Below, piece by piece: positions 52,835 through 64,000 of a DNA stretch of 64,000 nt; positions within the stretch are counted from its first letter, which is position 1; every line of letters starts with the position of its first letter. The notes under the pieces were generated by a model, which saw only the letters and a list, made by a program, of their open reading frames with translations, searched no databases and was not told where the DNA came from. The DNA is taken from assembly GCA_965205505.1 (NCBI GenBank), contig CBDBHB010000008.1, forward strand, positions 480,001 through 544,000, in the 5' to 3' direction. The translations under genes and the position numbers were made by a program. Source of the DNA: Acidobacteriota bacterium. Its GTDB lineage: Bacteria; Acidobacteriota; UBA890; WLXD01.

Positions 52835-54730
52835 ATGGACACGATGAGAGAGATCTCAGTTGCGACCCGGTCCGGGTCATCCGGGACAGTCCGTGCTCGT
52901 GTCGTATGGATCGGCGTCCTGCTACTGACCCTGTGGGCGGGGTTTCTCTCGGGTCAGCAGGGCTTCCCGCGCAACCAGGCCCTCTATGTGACGATGCGCG
53001 ACGGAGTCAAGATTGCGATCGATGTCTGGTTACCTGCAAGCCTGGAGCCTGACCAGGAGATCCCGACGGTTCTTCGTGCAACGCGCTACTGGCGCGCCAC
53101 CGATACCCGCAGCGACCGGCCCGAGGACGATCGCAACTTTGGCGAGGCGGAGCGCTTCAACAACAATGGGTACGCCCTGGTCCTCGTCGACGCGCGCGGC
53201 AGTGGAGCTTCCTTCGGTACCCGGCCCTATGAGCTCAGCCAAGAAGAGGTGCAGGACTACGGTGAGGTCGTCGATTGGGTCGTCGGGCAGCCTTGGTCCA
53301 ACGGCCGGGTTGGAGCGTGGGGCGTTTCCTACTCCGGCAACACGGCGGAGATGCTGGCCGTAACCGGTCACCCAGCGGTCAAGGCGATCGCACCGCTGTT
53401 CAACGACTTCGACAACTTCGGTCACCTGGTGTTTCCGAACAGCTTGCTCACCGTCGGCTTCCTGCAAGCCTGGGGCGAGGCGGTCCATAACATGGACATG
53501 AACGATATCTGCGCGCTGCGGGATGTGACCGGAGACGCCTGTGCCGAGCTCGAGCAGCAAACGAGTGGCGTAAAGCCGGTCGACAGCGATCATGACCGGC
53601 AACAGCTCGCCGCCGCGATCCGCCAGCATGCCGCCAACACCCAGCCATACTTCGCAGCGCTGGACTACGACTTCCGCGACGACCCCTTCGGCTCTGCCGG
53701 CGTGCGGGACGTTGGCTTCAAGCGCAGCCCTGCCGGTTACCTACCTCAGATCGAGGCGTCGGGAGTAGCGATGTTGATCCGAGTCGGTTGGCTGGATGCC
53801 GCAACCGTCAACGGCGCTCTCGGCCGCTACACGACGATCGATAATCCACAGCTGGTGAAGATCGGACCCTGGGACCACGGGGCTAACAACGACACCGATC
53901 CGTTCAAGCCTGTGGCAACAGCGGTCTCGCCTTCTCGCCAGGCACAAGACGAGGAATTGATCGAGTTCTTCGATCAATTCCTCAAGACAGACACCCCGGT
54001 GACGCCGGCGAGCCGTATCGACTACTACACGATGGGCTCCGGTCAATGGAATAGCACTCAGGTGTGGCCACCCGAGGGGTTTGCGCCTCAGCGTTGGTAC
54101 TTTGCTGCAGGTTCCGCCTTGAGCAGAGACGCGCCGGCACAGGCAACCGGCGCCGACAGCTACGTAGTGGACTTCGAGGCCACCACCGGACGGCACAATC
54201 GCTGGTTCACCAATGGTGGGGCCGGAGACGTGACCTACCCGGACCGTGCGCGAGCGGATCAACGGCTTCTGACGTACACCGGCAGCCCATTGAGCAGCGA
54301 CGTCGAGATCACCGGCCACCCCCTGGTCACGCTCTACGTGGCTTCGACACACAGCGACGGCGCATTCATCGCCTATCTTGAAGACGTCGCTCCGAACGGG
54401 AAAGTGACCTATATCACCGAAGGCGGGCTACGAGCCGTGGTTCGACGCGTGACCGAGGAGCCTCCCCTCTACACGAAGTTCGGACCTCACCGCACGGAAA
54501 GGCGTGCCGACGCCTGGCACCTGATACCGGGAGAAGTCGCCGAGCTGACGTTCGACCTTTGGGCGACGTCCGTCCTTGTGAAGAAGGGACACAGAATTCG
54601 CGTAGCGATCGCGGGAGCAGACCAGGATACGTTCTTTCGCTACCCCAAAGAGGGCGGCACCCCGACGATCACGGTGTACCGGGACCGCTTGCACGCGTCC
54701 CATATCGAGCTACCCGTCAAGGCACGCTAA
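52835..54730 (+). CDS. CocE/NonD-family hydrolase
   Basis: MRDGVKIAID, TRYWR, DARGSGASFG, QPWSNGRVGAWGVSYSG. Confidence 0.9.
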   Translation: MDTMREISVATRSGSSGTVRARVVWIGVLLLTLWAGFLSGQQGFPRNQALYVTMRDGVKIAIDVWLPASLEPDQEIPTVLRATRYWRATDTRSDRPEDDRNFGEAERFNNNGYALVLVDARGSGASFGTRPYELSQEEVQDYGEVVDWVVGQPWSNGRVGAWGVSYSGNTAEMLAVTGHPAVKAIAPLFNDFDNFGHLVFPNSLLTVGFLQAWGEAVHNMDMNDICALRDVTGDACAELEQQTSGVKPVDSDHDRQQLAAAIRQHAANTQPYFAALDYDFRDDPFGSAGVRDVGFKRSPAGYLPQIEASGVAMLIRVGWLDAATVNGALGRYTTIDNPQLVKIGPWDHGANNDTDPFKPVATAVSPSRQAQDEELIEFFDQFLKTDTPVTPASRIDYYTMGSGQWNSTQVWPPEGFAPQRWYFAAGSALSRDAPAQATGADSYVVDFEATTGRHNRWFTNGGAGDVTYPDRARADQRLLTYTGSPLSSDVEITGHPLVTLYVASTHSDGAFIAYLEDVAPNGKVTYITEGGLRAVVRRVTEEPPLYTKFGPHRTERRADAWHLIPGEVAELTFDLWATSVLVKKGHRIRVAIAGADQDTFFRYPKEGGTPTITVYRDRLHASHIELPVKAR

Positions 54731-55192
54731 TCGCTGCCCGCTGCGAAACCCGGGCCACTTCCTCTGCGTAATGCAAGCAAGGAGAGCCCGGACGCCCGAC
54801 CGTCGCCCGCTCCTCCCCGTTTCCGAGGCCGGTCATGATCACCCAGAAGCTCCGCACCACGATACGCAAGCTCGCCCTGTCGCCCTTCTTCTCGATCGTC
54901 GCAATATTGACGTTGGCGTTGGGGATCTCCGCCATAGTAATGTAACTAAATTACGTATTTACAATAGTTTACAGGAACTTCTAGTAGGCTATCACCTCAC
55001 TATTACCACCATTAAATCTGGGAATAAAGCGAACTTCTCCGGACCTCTGGGGAGCCCTGAACACACCGAGCGCCGAGGCCACAATCGCACCCGGGGCTGC
55101 AACTACACCACGCATCGCGGCCTCTTATTGCCCCATCTTCGGGTCGCTAGCACAGCGAGCCGACCTTCACGGGCGCGCCCGAGCTGTACCTT

Positions 55193-55444
55193 TCACCCCT
55201 CATGTGACCAAGGCACTGCCTGGTCCCATAGCGCCTCCAGGGCTTCGGTGTCGCCGGCAGCGCGGGCGCGTACCAGCGCCGCCAGGAGTGCCCCATCCAT
55301 CCGGAACACCTCTGTGCGCCGGTACCAGGTCGGTGGCCCTCCAGCCGTGGTGAGCTCCACTGCCTGGTCGGTCACGGCCAGCACACGCCGCAATGCGGCG
55401 CGCCCATCCGCCATGCGGCACACAACCAGCTGGCCTCTCTTCAT
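55193..55444 (-). CDS. Small hypothetical protein, divergent from the wHTH gene
   Basis: 83-aa ORF with a plausible beta-then-helix composition; no family recognised. Confidence 0.4.
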   Translation of the reverse strand: MKRGQLVVCRMADGRAALRRVLAVTDQAVELTTAGGPPTWYRRTEVFRMDGALLAALVRARAAGDTEALEALWDQAVPWSHEG

Positions 55445-55457
55445 GCAGCACGATAAG

Positions 55458-55488
55458 AGCTTAAGCTAGGAAGTTCCGGATGGAACTT
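55458..55488. promoter_or_regulatory. Two palindromic operator-like sites in a 54-bp divergent intergenic gap
   Basis: AGCTTAAGCT (55458-67) and AAGTTCC-GGAT-GGAACTT (55471-88). Confidence 0.5.
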
Positions 55489-55498
55489 TAACCTACTG

Positions 55499-56047
55499 AT
55501 GGAGAACAAGGTGATGGCTATCAACAAGGCAGTTCGTGACGGACTCCAAGCAGAACAAGCAGACGTTGCGGATGAGATGGCTCAGCTTGAGGCACGGCTG
55601 CAGTGGCTCAAGACACGACAGGACGCCCTCCACTTAATCCTGCAACAAGAGGCAGCACCTCCGGAACAAAAGGCGGCACCGGACGCCGGACTGCGCCGAC
55701 TCAGTGTTCGTGATGCGGCCCGAGCGGTACTCAAGGAGGCTGGGGCGCTGAAGCCTTCGCGGGTCACGCAGATTCTGCGCGATCGTGGCTATCAGCTCAA
55801 AGGAAAGATGAAGCCGGGTGCGCGTGTCGGGCAGGAGCTTTGGGCGATGGCCAAGTCGGGCACGCTGAGCAAGAACTCCGCTGGAGAGTACTTCTTGCCC
55901 GGTGAGGAACAAGACGAACCGAACACGGCTGCGCCACCGCCGCCCAGCTCCGATGAGGATGCCTCAGCCGTTGTCCGGAACGAATCAGCCGGCGCAACAG
56001 GTGCGGACAGCGGTACCGAGGCAGAAGGGTCAGGAGCATCGAGTTGA
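55499..56047 (+). CDS. Coiled-coil + winged-helix (HARE-HTH-like) DNA-binding protein
   Basis: Heptad-rich N-terminus, then SVRDAARAVLKEAGAL...VTQILRDRGY...G.YFL. Confidence 0.55.
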   Translation: MENKVMAINKAVRDGLQAEQADVADEMAQLEARLQWLKTRQDALHLILQQEAAPPEQKAAPDAGLRRLSVRDAARAVLKEAGALKPSRVTQILRDRGYQLKGKMKPGARVGQELWAMAKSGTLSKNSAGEYFLPGEEQDEPNTAAPPPPSSDEDASAVVRNESAGATGADSGTEAEGSGASS

Positions 56048-56529
56048 CGGTCTTGAGGTGGTGCCGGTGAGTTCCACTCCATTCGAGCCGTCACTGCCGG
56101 GTGATGGACCTTAGCCCCTTCGGCGGCGCTCAGGGTCCGGTGGCGTTTGTCTTTCACGACGGCGGCACGACGCCGCTCGATCTTTCCTTTCACTTCCTCG
56201 ACGCCGATGGCGGTTCCGAAGTTACTCCGGAACTGTGCGCCGCCGAGACCGGTGGCCGCGTCCGAGTTCATGTTGACGGGCTTCCTGACATATTCGACGT
56301 GCGGTGGCAGGACTCGGCACTGTGCTGCGACGGCGCGCCAGGGCAGCTTTTCGTTCTTCCTCGGACGTTGCGACTCGACCTCGGTCACACCTCGTTACGG
56401 TGGCTGCTCACTGGCTCATGCGGCCAACGGGGCTGGAGTGTGGCGCAAAACGACACGGCGGGGAGGTCGGTCGACAGCGTGCCACTCGACCGGGTGCAGC
56501 GCATTGACTTCGTATTGCAGTAGGGGGCC

Positions 56530-56745
56530 TACATCAAGCCCGATCGCCTTCGGCGACAGATCCAGAGAGTCCATCAAAATTTGGTGGAACAATGCCTCGC
56601 AGCCGATGCCGATCTGTCGGTACACACTCGTCATCCCACCGGCGGCCTTGTGCGCCGTGTACATCAGCGGGATTAGCGAGGCACATCCAGTGATAGGAGG
56701 GGTCGCTTCCACGCATCTGCTCGAAGTCCGCGAGCGAGAAGCCGA
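56530..56745 (-). pseudogene. Frameshifted fragment resembling a type II restriction-endonuclease-like family
   Basis: FSLADFEQM.GSDP.YHW...NP followed by LMYTAHKAAGGMTSVYRQIGIGCE.LF in an adjacent frame; the family assignment is from memory only. Confidence 0.35.
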
Positions 56746-56747
56746 CC

Positions 56748-56805
56748 TTAGGTTCAGGACCTAGTGGGCGCAAGCCCGTGGGGGTTCAAGTCCCTCCTTG
56801 GGCAC
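56748..56805 (+). tRNA. 3' half of tRNA-Leu(CAG) (att-site duplication, not a complete gene)
   Basis: Anticodon arm TTAGG-TTCAGGA-CCTAG, variable arm GGGC-GCAA-GCCC, T-arm GGGGGTTCAAGTCCCTC, acceptor 3' strand CTTGGGCA; no 5' GCCCAAG or D-arm upstream. Confidence 0.8.
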
Positions 56806-56840
56806 TACGGGTTAACCTCTTATAAAACAAGAAGATGTCG

Positions 56841-56873
56841 AGGGGACCGGGGCATTTCGTCTCGGTCCCCTTT
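56841..56873 (+). terminator. Hairpin following the tRNA fragment
   Basis: AGGGGACCGGGGC-ATTTC-GTCTCGGTCCCCT-TT. Confidence 0.55.
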
Positions 56874-57179
56874 CGCCGTTTCCAGGGCGAAAATTAACAA
56901 ACAGTTAACAAAACGGTCGCGAATTCGTCGTCGGTGGCGGTGATGATGCTGTTTGCCGACGGAGACATCGTCCGCTCGATGCAGCGGGCCGATACGGCAT
57001 AGCAACCGTTACGGGCCCTTTTCACCGAAGTCCGACCCGGCGCGCGTACGGACCCGACGCTTAGAGGTGACCCGGGAGGGTCCCGACGGCCTCGGCGATC
57101 GGATTCTTTACCGTGAGGATGAGCCCCGACTTCGCGATGTCGCACCGGGCCGCTCCTACGCGTTCGATGGTGACGGCCA

Positions 57180-57724
57180 TTACTTCCTGCTCATCATGGA
57201 CGACTGGCTGCTCATGCCCTTCATCACCACCGAGCGGCGCAAGATCCTCAAGGTCATCGAGGATCGCCACGAGCTTGCCTCAACGTTGATCGCCTCCCGC
57301 CTGCCGATCCCAGCCTGGCACGAGGCGCTGGCGAACCGACGGTCGCGGGCGCGATCTGTGACCGCCTGATCCACGCGGCTCACAAGATCCAGCTCAAGGG
57401 CTGCTCGATGCGTGAGATCCGCGCCCAGAGTCGATCGAAAAGCTAGTCGATGACGCCCGTCGCTGCGCTCCGATCCCGAACGCCGCCTCAGGGCCGTGGA
57501 TCCTGCCTGGCCTGTAGAAAACGCTGCGCGTTTACCACCGATCCTTGGGCGGCGCTGCGCGCCGCAGCACAGTTTCCACAGTCCCCCACGGCTACTACTC
57601 CTGCAACCCCGACTCCCAAGCAGATAAGCTACTCGTCGCTTCACTCCGATGGTGTGATCCCGTTCAGCCGAAACTGCTGATTACGTTGCACCGAAACGAG
57701 CGATCACGTTCCCCGAAATAGGCT
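57180..57724 (+). mobile_element. IS21-family relic: frameshifted istB 3' end plus right terminal repeats
   Basis: LLIMDDW...IEDRHE..STLIASRLP..WH then ICDRLIHAAHKIQLKG.SMR; three GAT.(A/C)CGTT....CGAAA repeats at 57655-57719. Confidence 0.8.
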
Positions 57725-57827
57725 GTGCCCGCCTTCGACGAAGGGTAGAGCGTGGAGGTGGCACTCAGAAAGCGCTGAGGACGGATCGTTTTCCCGCAGC
57801 CTGCTCGAGCACAACGGAATACGCTGT

Positions 57828-59402
57828 ATGGCCAAGCTACGCCGACTTCTAACACATGGGTACCTCCCTGAGGAGTTGCCGCAAGCCTTCAACAGCAACT
57901 CCTTTGGCCGACTACTTGGGGTAGCGAGCGCGAGTCCGCAACGAGGCTTCTATCGAACAAGGGGCAAAAAACTTCCTGTATATGAACTGGCCCGCCACAA
58001 CATCGCGCGCGCCGGTCAACTACGACGAGTTCTTTCGATCCCGAACCCTCTCGGACACTACTCTCTGGCACGTGAGATCGCCGTTAATTGGGAGCCCATT
58101 CAATCTCAATGTCGACGGAGTTCTCTTTCCCGAACCACGCCGTTGGCGGTGGACCAAGGTCCCCGGGCACTCATGTCCGAGACAGGAATCGAAGATCGGG
58201 TCCGACTTCGAGCTAGGTACAGAGCAACTGGCGGGTACCTTCTACGTGCGGACATCCAGAGCTTCTATCAATCGATCTACACGCACTCCATCCGCTGGGC
58301 GCTCTACGGTAAGGTCAAAGCAAAGCAGAACCGTTATGGACGCAACTTAGGCAACAATCTCGATTATTGGATTCGCCAAGCACAGGATCAGCAGACCAAG
58401 GGCATTCCTATCGGGCCCGACACCTCGTTGGTTATCGCAGAGATCGTGTTGAGTGCTGTCGATGAGGCTCTCGAAAAGAAGCTCGGTCGCGTCGTGGGAT
58501 TCAGGGCAATCGATGACTACGAACTCGCCTTCAAATCGCGAGACGAGGCCGAGGGAGCACTCGCCGGCCTCCAGACAGAGCTAATGCGCTTCGAGCTCCA
58601 ACTCAATCAGAACAAGTGTTCTGTACACCCACTGCCGGAGCCTATCACGCCGCTATGGACGACACAGTTGCGCACCTTCAAGATCCGATCGACTAGTCGC
58701 GAGCAGATCTCGGACCTCATGGAGTTCTTCAGCTTGGCGTTCGAACTTTTCCAACAATTCTCCGCTTCGTCGATACTACGATACGCAATTGGGCGGACAA
58801 GCAATGAGAACATCGACCCGGCGGCATGGCCCGTCTACCAAGATCTCCTGCTTCAGTGCGCCACTTCCGAGTCAGGCACCATCAGGTGGGTGCTTGCAGA
58901 GCTAGACCGCTACGCGAGCAATAGCGGGTGCTTGGATCACGACCGCATCCAACAGATGCTCACCGGTCTCATTACTCGCCATCTGCCCCTTGGCCACGGA
59001 AGTGAGGTGGCGTGGGCCATCTGGACCGCCATCAAACTAAAGATCAGGCTCGGGCATGAAGCGAGCGTCGATCTGACTCAAATGGAGGATCCTCTAGTAC
59101 CCATCCTGGCACTGGATGCGGACGCAAGAGGGTTGTTTGACTCTCATCTGGATAAGGGCCCGTGGAGCGCTATGATGACCGTGCAGGATCTCCACGGCGC
59201 GAATTGGCTGCTCGCCTACGAGGCTAGCGTTCAGGGGTGGCTTCCCTCCGTGGGAACACGCGATCACATAAAAGACTCGAGAGGATTTTCTTATCTGCGT
59301 CGGAACGATGTCCGCTTCTACAATCGCGCCGCGTCCGCTCGCTACATCAAGACGTGGCCGAGTCGGTTCACATTCTCGCAGCTGATTGGCTATGGCATCT
59401 AG
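57828..59402 (+). CDS. Stand-alone UG/Abi-type reverse transcriptase (putative anti-phage DRT/Abi polymerase) with a helical C-terminal domain
   Basis: GYLPEELP, RRVLSIPNP, ADIQSFYQSIYTHSIRWA, GIPIGPDTSLVIAEI, FRAIDDY, LQLNQNK; C-terminal EVAWAIW and WLLAYEA; lower GC than its flanks. Confidence 0.88.
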   Translation: MAKLRRLLTHGYLPEELPQAFNSNSFGRLLGVASASPQRGFYRTRGKKLPVYELARHNIARAGQLRRVLSIPNPLGHYSLAREIAVNWEPIQSQCRRSSLSRTTPLAVDQGPRALMSETGIEDRVRLRARYRATGGYLLRADIQSFYQSIYTHSIRWALYGKVKAKQNRYGRNLGNNLDYWIRQAQDQQTKGIPIGPDTSLVIAEIVLSAVDEALEKKLGRVVGFRAIDDYELAFKSRDEAEGALAGLQTELMRFELQLNQNKCSVHPLPEPITPLWTTQLRTFKIRSTSREQISDLMEFFSLAFELFQQFSASSILRYAIGRTSNENIDPAAWPVYQDLLLQCATSESGTIRWVLAELDRYASNSGCLDHDRIQQMLTGLITRHLPLGHGSEVAWAIWTAIKLKIRLGHEASVDLTQMEDPLVPILALDADARGLFDSHLDKGPWSAMMTVQDLHGANWLLAYEASVQGWLPSVGTRDHIKDSRGFSYLRRNDVRFYNRAASARYIKTWPSRFTFSQLIGYGI

Positions 59403-59429
59403 TTCGGCGTCTCCGACTCTCGTGACGAT

Positions 59430-62033
59430 TGACCTTGCCCCGCTTTCCCGGACACTTAGTTAAGATCCATTGTCGTAGTCGTGACCTGCCCCCCAAAGCT
59501 GGACACATCAAAACGAGAAAATCTCGGGGTATGAGTGCTCATCCTTCGGCAACCTGTTGGAGCTGTTGGACATACACAGCCGGAGCTAGATATCCCAAGG
59601 AAGAATGCGGTCTCGTTTCGTTGTACTCCCGGCGCCACCCCTCCAGCTGTTCCTGGGCCTCAGAGAGGCTCAGGAACCAGCTCTGGCTCAGACACTCGTC
59701 CCTGAGTTTGCCGTTGAAGCTCTCGATGTAGCCGTTCTCGACCGGTCGGCCGGGGCTGATGAAGTCCAGTTGGATACCGGCCGTGTAGGCCCAAGCGTCG
59801 AAGTGGTTGGAAGTGAACTCCGTGCCGTTGTCGAGCGTCAAGGCGATCGGCGCACCTCGTTGCGCCACGACCTTCTCGAGCACGTCCGTGACTCGCCTGG
59901 AGGGCAGCGACACGTCCGCCTCCAGCGCTAGGCATTCGCGGCTGTGGATGTCGATCACCGTGAGCACGCGGAACCTCCGGCCGTTGGCCAGAGCATCGCT
60001 GACGAAGTCCAGACTCCACCGCTCGTTGGGTGCCGACGGGGCCGGCAGATGAGCCCGCGGCCGCGCCGCGACCTTTCGCCGACGGGGTCGCGTTCGTAAC
60101 TGCAGTCTCTCCTGCTGGTAGAGCCGCAGCACTCGCTTGGCGTTGATCTTCCAGCCCTCCCGGCACAACAGCACATGCAATCGTCGATATCCGTAACGCG
60201 GCCGGGCCGCCGCCAGGTCGCGGATTCTGAGTCGCAGTGCCTCCTGCGGATCTTTTCGGTGCCGATAGTAGAAACTGCTGCGCTGAAGTTGCATCAGCCC
60301 GCACGCGCGGCGTGTCCCGATCTGGTACCGCTGTCGGGTTTGACGCACCAGCTGGCGCTTGCGCGCGGGCCTCAGACTTTTCTTGCCAGCACATCCTGGA
60401 GGATCTGCTTGTCCAATCTCAGATCGGCTACCAGCTTCTTGAGTTGACCGTTCTCCCGCTCCAGCTCTTTGAGCCGTCGCAGCTCGCTCGGCGCTAACCC
60501 CCCGTACTTGCTGCGCCACCGATAAAACGTCTGCTGGCTGACCCCGTACTTGCGGCACAACTCCGGAATCGGTACGCCGAGCTCCACCTGCTTGATCGCC
60601 GTGACGATCTGCGCGTCGCTGAATCGGGACCTCTTCACGAGTTTCTCCTCCTCTTTCGATTACGGAGATTTTCTCGCTTCGATGCGTCCAGTTTCCAGGG
60701 GCAGGTCAGTCGTATTAGCGGCTGTGGGAGCTGTTGGCAACGCGGAGCGTTGTCCAAGCGACGGTGGAAATCGGGAGTCGATTTCCACGGGCGCGTCAGC
60801 TTCCACAGCTGATTGGCCGCTCTGGCCTGGCCGCCGCATTGCCGCCTCGAACTGAGCCGGACTCTGGTCTCCGATCGAGGTGTGCATGCGAGCCCGGTTG
60901 TAGAACACTTCGATGTAGTGGAACAACTCGGCTCGGGCCGCCGCCCGGGAACTGAAGCAGCCACCGAGTTGGAACTTCAGGGTAGAGAAGAAACTCTCCA
61001 TCGGCGCGTTATCCCAGCAGTCTCCTTTCCTGCTCATGCTGATGGTGAAGCCACGGTCACGCAGCTTGTCTAGGTAATCGTCGCTGCTGTACTGGCTGCC
61101 GCGGTCGCTGTGATGGAGCACTCCGGAACCGGGACGGCGTTGCTCCAAGGCCTGATCCAGGACCGCCAGCGTCAAATCGTCCGTCATCGTCTCGCTCACC
61201 GCCCAGCCGATGATCCGTCGCGAGCACAGATCCATCACCACGGCCAGGTATAGCCATCCTTCCTGCGTCCACAGGTATGTCAGGTCGCCCACCCAGACGC
61301 TGTCCACGGCATCCACCGTGAAGCGCCGTGCCAGCACGTTGGGCGCCGCTGACCGGCCAGGTGTGGGCCGTGTTGTCACCCGGAACCGACGGGGTTGGCG
61401 AGCTCGAAGTCCTTCCTGGCGCATCAGCCGAGCTACCCGCTTGCGAGAGCAGCGGATCCCTCGTTGCCGAAGTTGCTTGTGGATGCGCGGACTTCCGTAA
61501 CGGTCGCGGCTCTCTCGGAATGCAGCTCTGATCTGCACACGTAGACGGCGATCTTCTCGCGCTCTCGGGCTCGGCCCCCTTCCTCGCCACTCGTAGTAAC
61601 CGCCGTGAGACACCTCGAGCATCTTGCACAACCGCCGCACCGGGAACTTGCCGGACAGTTGCTTGATGATCGGGTACTTCATCGCGGGCGTTCCGAGAAG
61701 ATCGCCAACGCTTTTTTTAGAATGTCGCGCACCTGCCGTACTCGCCGCACGTCCCGCCGTAGCTGTTGCCCGTCCAGGTCCTGGTCGGGCATCTTCCCCG
61801 CGCCCGGAAACGCCGTGACCCCCTGCTCCTGGAGCTGTTTGCGCCACTTGGTCAACATGCCGCGGCCAACACCCAGATCCCGGGCCACCTCAGACACCGG
61901 ATGGCCCAGCTGCGTCACCATCCTCACTGCCTCAATCTTGAACTCGCGACTGTACCGCCGTCGTGACCCCATGCTTCACCTCCGAGCCCATTATCGGGCT
62001 TCCAAAGGTGTCCGGGAAATCGGGGGAGGCCCA
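59430..62033 (-). mobile_element. IS3-family element (outer): OrfA 61679..61972, OrfB from 61682
   Basis: TIRs TGACCTTGCCCCGCTTTCCCGGACAC / GTGTCCGGGAAATCGGGGGAGGCCCA; 3-bp GAT duplication on both sides; WVGDLTY, HHSDRGSQY, GDCWDNAPMESFF. Confidence 0.92.
59482..60708 (-). mobile_element. IS3-family element (inner, IS407-like): OrfA 60372..60638, OrfB ending 59539
   Basis: TIRs TGACCTGCCCC...; 4-bp GTCG duplication; [32 protein letters not shown]; A-rich slippery site at the OrfA/OrfB junction. Confidence 0.93.
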
Positions 62034-62348
62034 GATGTCGATCTGCTGGTCGAGATCGAAACCGGCCCCGGTCGTAGGCCTGTAGCTCGTCCAGGTAGCG
62101 CGTCAAGTGATCGGCGCGCCGCGAAGCCGGCGGCCCTCATCGCCTCCGGAGCGACGTCGCCGCGCTGGATCGGCGGCGCCAGGCCGCCAGGGCCACCGAC
62201 GACGACGACTCGCGCAGTACCGGTCGATGAAGGCTTCGAAGCACCCGCCCGCCGCGGCGTACTGAGGCTCCGGCCCCTCGTGACGCGTAGGTGCGGGGCA
62301 GCGCACCGCGTACGGATCTCGTTACGGACGTTCCTCCGCCCGTGGGGC

Positions 62349-62520
62349 TCAATCTCTCGTTGCGGCGCCGAACTCTTGTTCCAGCTCGTAGAACAACGCG
62401 TCGCGCACGAGCACGACCGGCGAGAACCCGATGCGGTAGATACGGTCGTGAAAGTCCTTCAACGTTCCCCCCTGATCGAGCTCGCGCATCTCTTGGAAGT
62501 AGCCCTCGTCACGGAGAAGG
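62349..62520 (-). pseudogene. C-terminal fragment resembling the DUF885 family
   Basis: TLKDFHDRIYRIG.SPVVLVR. Confidence 0.45.
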
Positions 62521-62639
62521 CGGATCCCGAGGACGAAGCCGTCTACACGCTCGGGGTCAACACCAGCGGCCAGGTCGAGGAAGCCACGGTGCGGATCCTG
62601 TCGGCCTCGGGCACGGCCGGGCAACATCCGGGCAGCATC

Positions 62640-63148
62640 CGGTAGACTCTCCCGCATGGATTCACCGCACCACACCGGGCGCCGCGGCCGCGTTCAAGTG
62701 CTACCGGGATCTCGGGCCACGTCGAACGATCCGAGCCGCGGCACGTGCGGCCGGTCACGCACAGACGCCGGGTTCATGGAGCCGATGGGCGAAGCGTCAT
62801 GAATGGGCGCAGCGCGCGGCCGAGTGGGACGCTCGCGTTGATGATCGAACGCTCGACGGCTGCCGAGAATCCGCGCGGGCCCGTCGGCGAGATTGGGAGC
62901 CACTCGCGGCCGAGCTCGCGGCGGGCTGCCGAGCCGAACTCGCCGCGATGTCGAAGGGCGGCATGCGGATGACCGTCGGTGAGCTCTGCCGGCTGATCCG
63001 GGCCGGCGTTGCGATCGAAGCGATGCTCACGGGCGCGAAGGCGGCGCAAGATCGCTCCGGTGTGGATGCAGCTCAACGCTGGGCCGCAAAGCTCGAACGG
63101 ATCGCGCAACGGCAGCATGGCCTCCGATCCGACGGTGCGCTTCACTGA
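62640..63148 (+). CDS. Phage terminase-small-subunit-like HTH protein
   Basis: W......AAAAFKCYRDLGPRRTIRAAA.......WSRWAKRHEWAQRAAEWD. Confidence 0.5.
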
Positions 63149-63179
63149 GAACGCGGCCGACGTCGGAGCGGCTGGTGAG

Positions 63180-63305
63180 CTGTTTATGAAAAGGGGGATC
63201 CCGGAGCATATTGGCTCCGATAACGGCCCGGAGTTCACGGTCGAGGCCGTGCGTGACTGGCTATCACGGTGAGGAATCGGGACGCTGTTCGTCGAGCCGG
63301 TTCGA
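63180..63305 (+). mobile_element. Degenerate IS3 relic related to 1-494
   Basis: [30 protein letters not shown] followed by IGTLFVEPG. Confidence 0.75.
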
Positions 63306-63334
63306 ACAACCACCGGCACGCTACCTCCGCCGCT

Positions 63335-64000
63335 CTGGCGTCGAGGGCGATTCCACTGATTGCTGCGGCCGTTGGCCTCGCGCTGGTGACATGGGGGGGT
63401 ACCTCATGCTGCGCGGGCGGAGGCGCAGCAGGCACCTTCGGTGCCGCGGCTCTTGCGGCCCGATGCGGACGGCCGCCAGGTGCCGCTTGTGCCGGATTCC
63501 AACGTCACCCGTTCTCGTCGGGTTCGCGTAAGGACGCGGCTGCTCGGTGGCCTGTCGTTTTCTGAGCGCCGAGCACCGGATCCCGGAAGCACCGTCACGC
63601 TGAACCTCTTTGACGATGCCCGGTTCGTGGCGGTGCTCGAGTACGTCGAGCCGCTCGGGGACGGAGGCTACGCCTGGGCTGGCCACTTGGCGGATCGGCC
63701 CGACGCCAGCGTGATCCTCACTGTTCGAGACGGGCGCATACAAGCCAGCGTCAACGCCCTGCAGGACGGCTTCTACCTGCTCCGGGCAACACGTGATGGC
63801 GCCCAGCTCGTAGTGCAGATCGAAGGCGCGCCACCGCCCGACGCGGTGGAGATTTCCCCGAGCGACGGTGTTTCAGTTCAGCCGGACGACGATCGCACTA
63901 CGGGATCGGTTCAAAGAACCGCGCAGATTGACATGCTCGTCGTCTACACGCGGGCGGCGCAGCGAAGCGCTAGCAACATTCACGGCGTTATCGACCTGGC
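63335..64000 (+). CDS. Secreted reprolysin/M12-like metallopeptidase N-terminus (runs off the window), frameshifted at a G7 tract
   Basis: RSRRVRV...TVTLNLFDD...YAWAGHL...SVILTVRDG...IDMLVVYT; the signal peptide is in a different frame upstream of G7 at 63393-63399. Confidence 0.65.

Follow-up and report, generated by a model that had tools for sequence, protein, structure and literature searches.

An intact DRT6 (UG12) reverse transcriptase gene with alanine in place of the motif C tyrosine in an Acidobacteriota genome

The open reading frame at 57828-59402 on the + strand of the window (the whole stretch of 64,000 nucleotides analysed here) is probably an intact member of the DRT6 (UG12) family that arrived by horizontal transfer and works as a single-gene abortive-infection system. 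It encodes a full-length DRT6/UG12 protein, a class-1 UG/Abi reverse transcriptase, with DRT4/UG15 clearly second as a label. The original prediction described a single-gene defence polymerase of UG/Abi type; its stand-alone layout holds, but it is not an unplaced enzyme, as PADLOC, the scores of its homologues and Foldseek all put it inside DRT6/UG12. It thus lies within a DRT type that is largely characterised already: its defence phenotype, biochemistry and phage trigger have been described, and its structure has been solved by cryo-EM (9wy8). We regard it as a fairly ordinary DRT6 member, a few of whose details merit testing, and DRT6/UG12 is the proper annotation, rather than "unusual RT", DRT4 or a truncated 409-aa call.

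The ORF listing gives 524 aa plus a stop, beginning at an ATG that is the earliest start codon in a frame open for 573 codons. All the motifs quoted in the original prediction are real and were located by script on the translation: ADIQSFYQSIYTHSI at residue 141, GIPIGPDTS at 192, FRAIDDY at 225 (AIDD being 227-230), HGYLP at 10 and IGYGI at 520. Although the protein database carries a shorter gene call of 409 aa (P0001), homologues align end to end with the longer reading (residues 1-524 to 1-526), and invariant family positions are present within its first 115 residues, indicating that the 524-aa reading is the correct one. Pfam RVT_1 matches residues 132-267 with 33.2 bits, above the gathering threshold of 29.6, and the gene is present as a single copy in the 5.98-Mb genome. 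The features discussed below are collected in Table 1.

Table 1. Position of the DRT6/UG12 gene and of its parts in the window, with the basis of each assignment
Feature	Coordinates	Strand	Basis
DRT6/UG12 reverse-transcriptase-like defence gene	57828..59402	+	ORF; PADLOC Drt6 residues 2-509
RT lobe (fingers + palm), residues 1 to ~285	57828..58682	+	Pfam RVT_1; AlphaFold secondary structure; 9wy8/DRT4 alignment
Loop P105-R128, equivalent of the DRT4 priming-Tyr125 loop	58140..58211	+	HMMER alignment to UG15 chain 21ou_A; family columns
Motif A block ADIQSFYQSIYTHSI: metal-binding D142, gate-position Y147, H153	58248..58292	+	Script; DRT4 D149/H160 alignment
D179, equivalent of DRT4 D192 (proposed RNase His-Asp site)	58362..58364	+	Alignment NLDYWIRQ / KLDYFQRQ
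Motif B-like GIPIGPDTS	58401..58427	+	Script; family conservation
Motif C AIDD (A227 I228 D229 D230), replacing YxDD	58506..58517	+	Script; clade counts
Alpha-helical repeat lobe in the thumb's place, including Y319	58683..59318	+	Model helices 290-468; TM 0.89 to DRT6
Flexible tail at the C-terminus (residues 498-524), with W510...QLIGYGI at its end	59319..59399	+	pLDDT drop; tail motif
Upstream non-coding stretch	57370..57827	+	Rfam, fold, conservation and promoter scans, all without a match

The PADLOC Drt6 model (PDLC03748) matched residues 2-509 with 536.9 bits (E 1.4e-161), while the UG15 model PDLC03752 reached 269 bits, RT_UG30 197, RT_UG14 158 and AbiK 122. A phmmer search of PDB sequences returned 9wy8_A (E 5.8e-71, residues 1-502), and the structure led to the same place. 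The AlphaFold model of the 524-aa protein (pLDDT 95.0, pTM 0.94) has helices from ~290 to 468, bearing out the long helical C-terminus that had been read from the sequence, and its pLDDT drops to 71 and 49 in the final two blocks of the tail. The best Foldseek match was again 9wy8_A, "hexameric DRT6" (TM 0.89/0.94, rmsd 2.1 A, 511 columns, 32% identity), followed by DRT4 (TM 0.78-0.79) and AbiK (0.65-0.69). With this Sphingopyxis sp. DRT6 (PHR10625.1) our protein shares the full-length HMM match, the two-lobe fold, the single-gene layout, the aspartates of the active site and, in the fingers, the His/Asp pair. It differs in reading AIDD instead of YVDD and in lying in a distinct clade of 58 tips, marked by characteristic residues at 19, 144, 191, 261 and 425 and a conserved basic GYG(I/L) tail, and the identity of only 32% counts against the preferred reading. 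A hexamer (dimer of trimers) is expected by analogy with 9wy8 and the published work.

Apart from the alanine in motif C, our protein retains the residues that are catalytic or near-invariant, which makes the gene look functional. Compared with 251 homologues, it departs from positions conserved in at least 90% only at T264C and in a 2-residue loop insertion. D142, H153, D179 and D229 show no variation across the family, and our protein carries all four, together with the near-invariant D230 (D 239, N 9, E 4; n=252); D142 and D229 were likewise invariant in a set of 143 sequences, D179 was Asp in 119/119, and G192, P194, G196, P197, D198 and S200 of the motif B-like stretch are each at least 95% conserved. 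The DNA and metal contacts of DRT4 map to R67 (R in 252/252), D142, D229/D230 and Y319 (Y in 230/252). Y319 is the equivalent of Tyr337, which stacks on the DNA product according to PMC12783706, and thus one of the two 3'-end-stacking tyrosines of DRT4 is retained.

E. coli carrying UG12 is protected from T5 and ZL-19, but not when the RT motif is mutated (PMC9226505). For the Sphingopyxis DRT6, PMC12783706 describes an oligomeric, single-gene abortive-infection system. The DNA it synthesises is template-independent and covalently attached to the protein, toxicity is seen with T5 ORF55 as well as in sbcB-knockout cells, and the trigger is an SSB-like protein from phage. By homology, our protein would prime from one of its own residues and produce template-free, protein-linked single-stranded DNA, which a host 3'-5' exonuclease would keep in check. 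An SSB-like phage protein, by binding this DNA, would then make synthesis toxic, by DNA accumulation and/or by an RNase site in the fingers like that described for DRT4. Our own results bear on family membership, fold, the intact catalytic residues, the single-gene layout and the acquired context, whereas the oligomer, priming, product, trigger and effector step are carried over from studies of related enzymes.

The alanine at position 227 is not confined to this copy: it is the majority residue of the clade in which the protein lies (support 1.0), occurring in 45 of the 58 tips, so it is not the case that close homologues all carry Y/FxDD. Across the family, 83/252 sequences have none of Y, F, H or W at this position, as do 22/140 representatives at 50% identity, among which alanine is rare (4/140); canonical YxDD is therefore not defining for DRT6/UG12 in practice. 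Outside the clade, 27/194 sequences also have no aromatic residue at 227, without sharing the clade's co-changes, so this position is generally tolerant. The alignments thus indicate that alanine for the YxDD tyrosine is an inherited clade trait, and it is compatible with an active enzyme. A sizeable part of UG12 does without the tyrosine that stacks on the primer in DRT4, one well-supported clade having alanine instead. This gives the field a modest but usable lead: these natural variants can be used for asking how the primer is positioned in template-free synthesis and what sets the composition of the product. Two points weigh against the preferred reading. The only bench-tested DRT6 reads YVDD at motif C in our alignment, and in DRT4 the YxDD tyrosine, Tyr238, stacks on the primer's 3' base (PMC12783706; bioRxiv 2026.10.21.760695), and without it synthesis could be weaker or altered. 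We found no Ala-type DRT6 with a reported assay in the literature searched, and none of the literature matches listed joins AIDD or AVDD with UG12, the AIDD matches concerning drug discovery or unrelated subjects by title.

The strongest alternative is that the Ala clade forms a functionally distinct DRT6 subtype, with a remodelled primer/nucleotide pocket, its own tail and a different product (in length or base composition) or trigger; we consider this possible, though we would not expect it. In addition to the full support for the clade, its members have concerted residues in or near the RT motifs, namely Q19 (P in 170/194 outside), Q144, K/R191, A227 and E/Q261, as well as P425 (100% in the clade vs 1% outside), E358 and Y337. 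The conserved basic GYG(I/L) tail agrees with such a split: a pattern search for a GY[GD]-hydrophobic end matched 23/58 clade sequences and 0/194 outside, and the fuller motif W(K/R)xR..QL(I/V)GYG(I/L) is common to the sub-branch of our protein. In DRT4 a flexible C-terminal subdomain acts as the sensor of phage SSB (bioRxiv 2026.10.21.760695), which makes a trigger-related role for the tail conceivable. However, all of these differences may be plain shared ancestry, the non-aromatic sequences outside the clade do without the co-changes, and the PADLOC scores do not set the clade apart from the rest of the family.

Seven clade members go further and read AIDN: they are intact, with D230N and with D142, H153, D179 and D229 retained, a hint that constraint on the polymerase may have loosened in some of the clade, and it is a point against the preferred reading that a few UG12 relatives have even the second catalytic Asp replaced by Asn. 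These sequences fit an enzyme whose polymerase is weakened and whose RNase site is the real effector, DNA synthesis being either limited to making a short sensing primer or absent, as in the AIDN relatives. The missing stacking tyrosine would fit as well, and the invariant H153 and D179 align with His160/Asp192, the RNase His-Asp site proposed for DRT4 (bioRxiv 2026.10.21.760695). We nevertheless judge it distinctly unlikely for our protein, which keeps both motif C Asp residues and every other polymerase residue; in the literature searched, RNase activity is reported for DRT4 only. The motif around H153 is conserved in many reverse transcriptases not known to be RNases, which makes the invariance of this residue a weak argument for RNase activity, and this also tempers the RNase step allowed for in the abortive-infection mechanism. 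The AIDN variants could serve for asking whether DNA synthesis or the proposed RNase is the killing step in DRT6.

Two tyrosines had been put forward as candidate primers, and neither keeps this role easily. The tyrosine of the N-terminal GY, at position 12, is an unlikely primer because the hydroxyl there varies across the family (Y 162, F 55, M 11 and L 6; n=252). The tyrosine of the terminal IGYGI belongs to a family-wide aromatic tip, as Tyr occurs within the final 6 residues in 146/247 sequences (~13% expected); Phe often stands in the same place, so the tip resembles a docking peptide rather than a source of the priming hydroxyl. The DRT4 primer offers no substitute: Tyr125, for which PMC12783706 reports absolute conservation in 174 DRT4s, aligns to E118, flanked by S117 and T119, and no conserved Tyr was found in the equivalent loop, any Tyr between P105 and R132 being present in only 95/252 UG12-type sequences. 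That no tyrosine aligns with Tyr125 counts against the preferred reading. The aromatic tips provide a second testable handle on how DRT6 enzymes are restrained or triggered. It is tempting to combine these observations, and we put forward the following picture as rather unlikely in its entirety. The Ala clade would be a distinct DRT6 subtype in which loss of the tyrosine, the changes at 19, 144, 191 and 261 and the basic GYG(I/L) tail lead to another DNA product or to another coupling of synthesis to effector. The AIDN members would be a working system with a crippled polymerase and with His153/Asp179 as the killing activity, and the aromatic, often acidic tips of UG12 would be SSB-tail-like peptides that dock to the restraining host exonuclease or to the triggering phage SSB.

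The surroundings of the gene are those of an acquired element. G+C is 0.54-0.58 across the gene and 0.63-0.69 in the flanks. Upstream, a 138-aa ORF (56953-57369) has an IstB match limited to 49 residues; downstream lies an IS3-family element nested in another, the first starting 36 bp past the gene's stop, and an rve fragment is found at 63009-63272. The claim that the neighbours are decayed is borne out by the IstB remnant, the rve fragment and the nesting of the IS3 copies, but not by the IS3 transposase ORFs, which are long and open. A small-terminase-like ORF also lies near the gene. No tRNA gene that could mark an integration site was found in 40000-64000.

The gene stands alone in these searches, which found no ncRNA or effector partner. 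Rfam gave 0 matches at E<=1 in 54500-60000, PADLOC assigned 0 families to 7 neighbouring ORFs, and no repeat array was found in 54000-64000, all consistent with the predicted lack of a group II intron, CRISPR, DGR or retron partner. An ncRNA partner was also rejected on the 298 nt upstream, whose fold z-score is 0.31 (124/200 shuffles fold at least as well) and in which an alignment of five loci (ours and 4 related) has 41% mean identity and no conserved block. A conserved partner gene was rejected likewise, the most widespread neighbour family being shared by 9/80 related genome loci. The protein itself is neither a group II intron RT (group_II_RT_mat, 34 bits vs a cut-off of 300) nor a retron RT (retron_St85_RT, 23 bits vs 235), and DGR profiles scored far under their cut-off, Rfam again being without a match.

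An IS-ridden, decaying mobile region could also hold a dead relic that has survived by chance, and the IstB and rve fragments, the nested IS3 copies and the non-canonical residue in motif C can be read in this way. The sigma-70-like scan adds to this, and weighs against the abortive-infection reading, as its sole match lies inside the gene (59149-59176) with none upstream, although shuffled sequences also give one match. A relic is very improbable, since the frame is full-length and aligns end to end with homologues, T264C is the sole substitution at a site conserved in at least 90%, and alanine is the normal residue of the clade.

That the gene encodes a DRT4 (UG15) enzyme, as two older "Drt4"-labelled PADLOC models would have it (PDLC02177/02179, 531 and 508 bits, near the 537 of Drt6), is scarcely credible, as the NCBIfam Drt4 equivalog scores 250.4 bits against a cut-off of 450, the UG15-derived PADLOC model stays at the 269 bits given above, solved UG15 chains match residues 7-344 only (E ~1e-32, TM 0.78), and the hallmark Tyr125 is replaced by glutamate. 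The two older models and PDLC03748 were the top three for 10/10 homologues (4 inside the Ala clade, 6 outside), indicating that PDLC02177/02179 overlap UG12. As a DRT6 member, our protein still shares with the E. coli DRT4 (9vdo, 9vdv, 9l9s, 21ou) the class-1 architecture and equivalents of R75, D149, D240/D241, Tyr337, His160 and Asp192, and a hexamer and template-independent, protein-primed synthesis would be expected of our protein too. It differs in overall identity (~25%), in lacking counterparts of both the priming Tyr125 and the stacking Tyr238, and in the purine-reading residues, which are not kept: N124 becomes S117, N285/D286 become T274/P275, and the 6-residue insertion that holds Q23/K24 is missing from our protein. 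This counts against the preferred reading, and the product of our enzyme cannot be read off from that of DRT4.

In a phage collection, 0 of 8 matches covered at least 80% of the protein, the best being P2-type Abi-P2-like RTs, and 9 plasmid records had at least 80% cover with identity of at most 34%. AbiK and Abi-P2 are protein-primed, template-independent Abi polymerases (PMC9508834), and AbiK primes from the N-terminal Tyr44 according to the title of entry 7z0z. Our protein resembles both (7r06/7r07 and 7r08) in having an RT palm followed by a helical lobe, and differs in that only its palm can be matched by sequence (residues 134-270, E 1e-13 to 1e-15) and the TM scores are 0.55-0.69.

The reverse transcriptase is a DRT6 (UG12) enzyme of the class-1 UG/Abi group. 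Pfam RVT_1 gave a modest match (33.2 bits), and the PADLOC Drt6 model, built on UG12, matched at full length (residues 2-509, 536.9 bits, E 1.4e-161). Two older PADLOC models labelled Drt4 came next (531 and 508 bits), and the PADLOC Drt4 model derived from UG15 scored 269 bits. When PADLOC was run on 10 homologues, 4 inside the query's clade (the 58-tip branch described below) and 6 outside it, the same three models scored best in all 10 and the UG15-derived model gave about half the bits, so the older Drt4-labelled models overlap UG12. Assignment to DRT4 was rejected, as the NCBIfam Drt4 equivalog reached 250 bits, under its cut-off of 450. The top PDB-sequence match was 9wy8_A (E 5.8e-71, residues 1-502); UG15/DRT4 chains matched residues 7-344 only, at ~1e-32, and matches to Abi-P2 and AbiK chains were confined to the palm. 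An AlphaFold model from a 143-sequence alignment (mean pLDDT 95.0, pTM 0.94) gave, in Foldseek rank order, 9wy8_A ("Cryo-EM structure of the hexameric DRT6"; TM 0.89/0.94, rmsd 2.1 Å, 32% identity), DRT4/UG15 (TM 0.78-0.79), AbiK (TM 0.65-0.69) and Abi-P2 (TM 0.55). The original prediction of a single-gene defence polymerase was right about the kind of enzyme, but profiles and fold place it within an already characterised type.

Passages in Mestre et al. (2022, PMC9226505) name the UG12 system DRT type 6 and report that it gives E. coli moderate protection against T5 and ZL-19, which is lost in an RT-motif mutant. In passages of Wang et al. (PMC12783706), the Sphingopyxis DRT6 is oligomeric, acts by abortive infection and synthesizes DNA without a template, the product being covalently attached to the protein; toxicity is described with T5 ORF55 and also in sbcB-knockout cells. 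The family is widespread, with at least 546 confirmed stretches from many phyla in a species-representative genome set. One full-length relative (locus L010, 8001-9527; 40% identity over residues 1-511) belongs to a contig that carries an archaeal MAG label.

The gene is present in one copy in the 5.98-Mb genome (9 contigs), and its ATG is the earliest start codon of a frame open over 573 codons. All motifs quoted in the original prediction were found by script in the translation. The only protein-database entry for the query, P0001, is a 409-aa product starting at Met116 (100% identity, 78% cover); it omits the first 115 codons, so that most of the fingers would be missing. Alignments to homologues begin at residue 1 (one runs 1-524 against 1-526), and the invariant P18, R67 and P74 fall within those 115 residues, so the 524-aa gene call, not the 409-aa one, is correct.

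Features of the reverse transcriptase and its surroundings, in window coordinates and query residue numbers
Feature	Window position	Query residue	Strand	Detail
RT ORF	57828..59402		+	ATG start, 524 aa (ORF listing)
HGYLP		10		motif script on translation
ADIQSFYQSIYTHSI		141		motif script on translation
GIPIGPDTS		192		motif script on translation
FRAIDDY		225		AIDD = 227-230; motif script on translation
IGYGI		520		motif script on translation
Codons omitted from P0001	57828-58172
Second catalytic Asp	58515-58517	230
Cys264	58617-58619	264
RT tail	59319-59399
ORF, 632 aa	50753-52651		-
ORF, 631 aa	52835-54730		+
IstB debris ORF, 138 aa	56953-57369		+	upstream of RT; IstB_IS21 match, 49 residues of 238-position profile
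Outer IS3-family element	59438-59455 / 62008-62025			18-nt inverted repeats; start 36 bp past RT stop
Inner IS3-family element	59482-59525 / 60665-60708			44-nt inverted repeats; nested in outer element
Small-terminase-like ORF, 285 aa	62291-63148		+	phrog_6299, E 8.4e-10, residues 128-223
rve fragment, transposase debris	63009-63272		+	weak match, E 0.0035

The non-canonical AIDD motif is present as first described, but it is not peculiar to this copy. We aligned 252 sequences (262 proteins from two database searches, minus 11 that were <470 aa, >600 aa or a self-hit, plus the query) and built a midpoint-rooted FastTree phylogeny on 515 trimmed columns. Position 227 was Y in 112, A in 48, F in 29, H in 22, S in 10, W in 6 and another residue in 25, so that an aromatic residue or His was absent in 83/252, in a sample skewed toward the query's closest relatives. 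The query falls in a 58-tip clade (support 1.0), and checking close homologues, as had been proposed, showed Ala to be the majority there (Ala 45, Ser 6, Leu 2, Met 2, Tyr 1, Ile 1, Trp 1). Nine parsimony changes between Ala and non-Ala were counted over the whole tree; outside the clade, an aromatic residue or His was absent in 27/194, without consistent co-changes. Among 140 placed representatives at 50% identity, the clade accounted for 6, Ala for 4 and absence of an aromatic residue or His for 22, and in the best 80 genome loci, not counting the query, the first motif-C residue was Y in 41, F in 26, S in 5, H in 4, A in 2 and M in 2. With Ala in 45 of 58 clade tips and so many relatives lacking an aromatic residue or His, AIDD is an inherited clade trait at a change-tolerant position; it is not a mutation confined to this copy and does not signal decay. 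Since the enzyme belongs to a characterised type and AIDD is common to a clade, the surprise is small. A literature search, with supplements and two key papers outside its scope, found nothing linking AIDD or AVDD variants to UG12.

At sites at least 90% conserved in 251 homologues, the query departs only by T264C and a two-residue loop insertion. Residue 264, which in the LNxxKT block comes directly after the invariant Lys263, is Thr in 234/251 and Cys in just 2 others. Residues specific to the clade are Q19 (P in 170/194 outside), Q144, K/R191, which adjoins motif B, E/Q261, Y337, E358 and P425 (100% in the clade versus 1% outside). Seven intact clade members of 481-526 aa (P0003, P0004, P0006, P0009, P0011, P0016 and P0030) read AIDN, the second catalytic Asp being replaced by Asn with D142, H153, D179 and D229 retained; outside the clade, position 230 is Asn in two sequences, and Glu occurs in four of the 252-sequence set.

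Passages of two preprints on DRT4 (10.64898/2026.10.21.760695, 10.64898/2026.10.27.754916) describe a dimer-of-trimers hexamer primed from Tyr125, in which the primer 3′ base stacks on Tyr238 of YxDD, synthesis prefers purines, and an RNase with a site including His160 and Asp192 needs dNTP and SSB. We mapped these residues through a HMMER alignment to the UG15 chain 21ou_A and the numbering in the papers. The metal ligands D149 and D240/D241 correspond to D142 and D229/D230, the phosphate contact R75 to R67 (R in 252/252), the second stacking Tyr337 to Y319 (Y in 230/252), and the RNase-site His160 and Asp192 to H153 and D179 (conserved in 118/119 and 119/119). The query retains the polymerase core and, of the two stacking tyrosines, one. 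His at the H153 spot of motif A is common among reverse transcriptases without RNase activity, which makes the RNase inference weaker than it appears. The purine-reading N124 is replaced by S117 and N285/D286 by T274/P275, and the base and phosphate contacts Q23/K24 sit in a six-residue insertion missing from the query; the composition of its product cannot be inferred from DRT4.

DRT4 Tyr125 aligns to E118 in the same alignment. The stretch P105-R132 contains any Tyr in only 95/252 family sequences and Ser or Thr in 245/252; position 103 is always Ser/Thr (118/119, the remaining one being a gap), and S101 is Ser/Thr in 115/119. Neither tyrosine originally put forward as a primer fared well. 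The N-terminal one, Y12, has no conserved hydroxyl, since the position is Tyr in 162, Phe in 55, Met in 11 and Leu in 6 of 252 sequences. The terminal one lies in a tail extending ~25-45 residues past the invariant F497, where pLDDT of the query model drops to 71 and then 49. Among the C-termini of protein-database relatives (P0002-P0262) and genome loci (L002-L081), Tyr occurs in the last six residues of 146/247 (59%) family sequences, against ~13% expected from tail composition, and of 38/74 (51%) locus ORFs ending at a real stop (~13% expected). In 19-23% the final residue is Tyr, and in 11-18% it is Phe; such Tyr/Phe interchange favours a docking peptide over a priming hydroxyl. Many tails are acidic, ending in DDDLPF, DDDPF, EDGDF or SDDDF, and are similar to the bacterial SSB C-terminal tip. 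The query's sub-branch instead carries a basic, conserved tail, W(K/R)xR(F/L)(S/T)xxQL(I/V)GYG(I/L), and a pattern search found the GY[GD]-hydrophobic end in 23/58 clade sequences and 0/194 outside. A tie between the tails and the control of DRT6 toxicity by SbcB, or the sensing of SSB by the C-terminal subdomain of DRT4, would be speculative. Comparative interest remains in features that ordinary mutants can test: the natural loss of the primer-stacking Tyr, the few relatives with D230N and the aromatic tips of the C-terminal tails.

The claim that no partner lies beside the gene agreed with the searches: none of seven unknown neighbouring ORFs matched defence models, Rfam, fold energy and upstream alignment gave no sign of an ncRNA partner, and no neighbour family was shared by more than 9 of 80 related loci. 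G+C is 0.54-0.58 over the gene versus 0.63-0.69 in the flanks. The small-terminase-like ORF beside the IS cluster suggests a prophage remnant. Just before the low-G+C island, the divergent 632-aa and 631-aa ORFs look, by eye, like paralogous alpha/beta-hydrolase-type peptidases.
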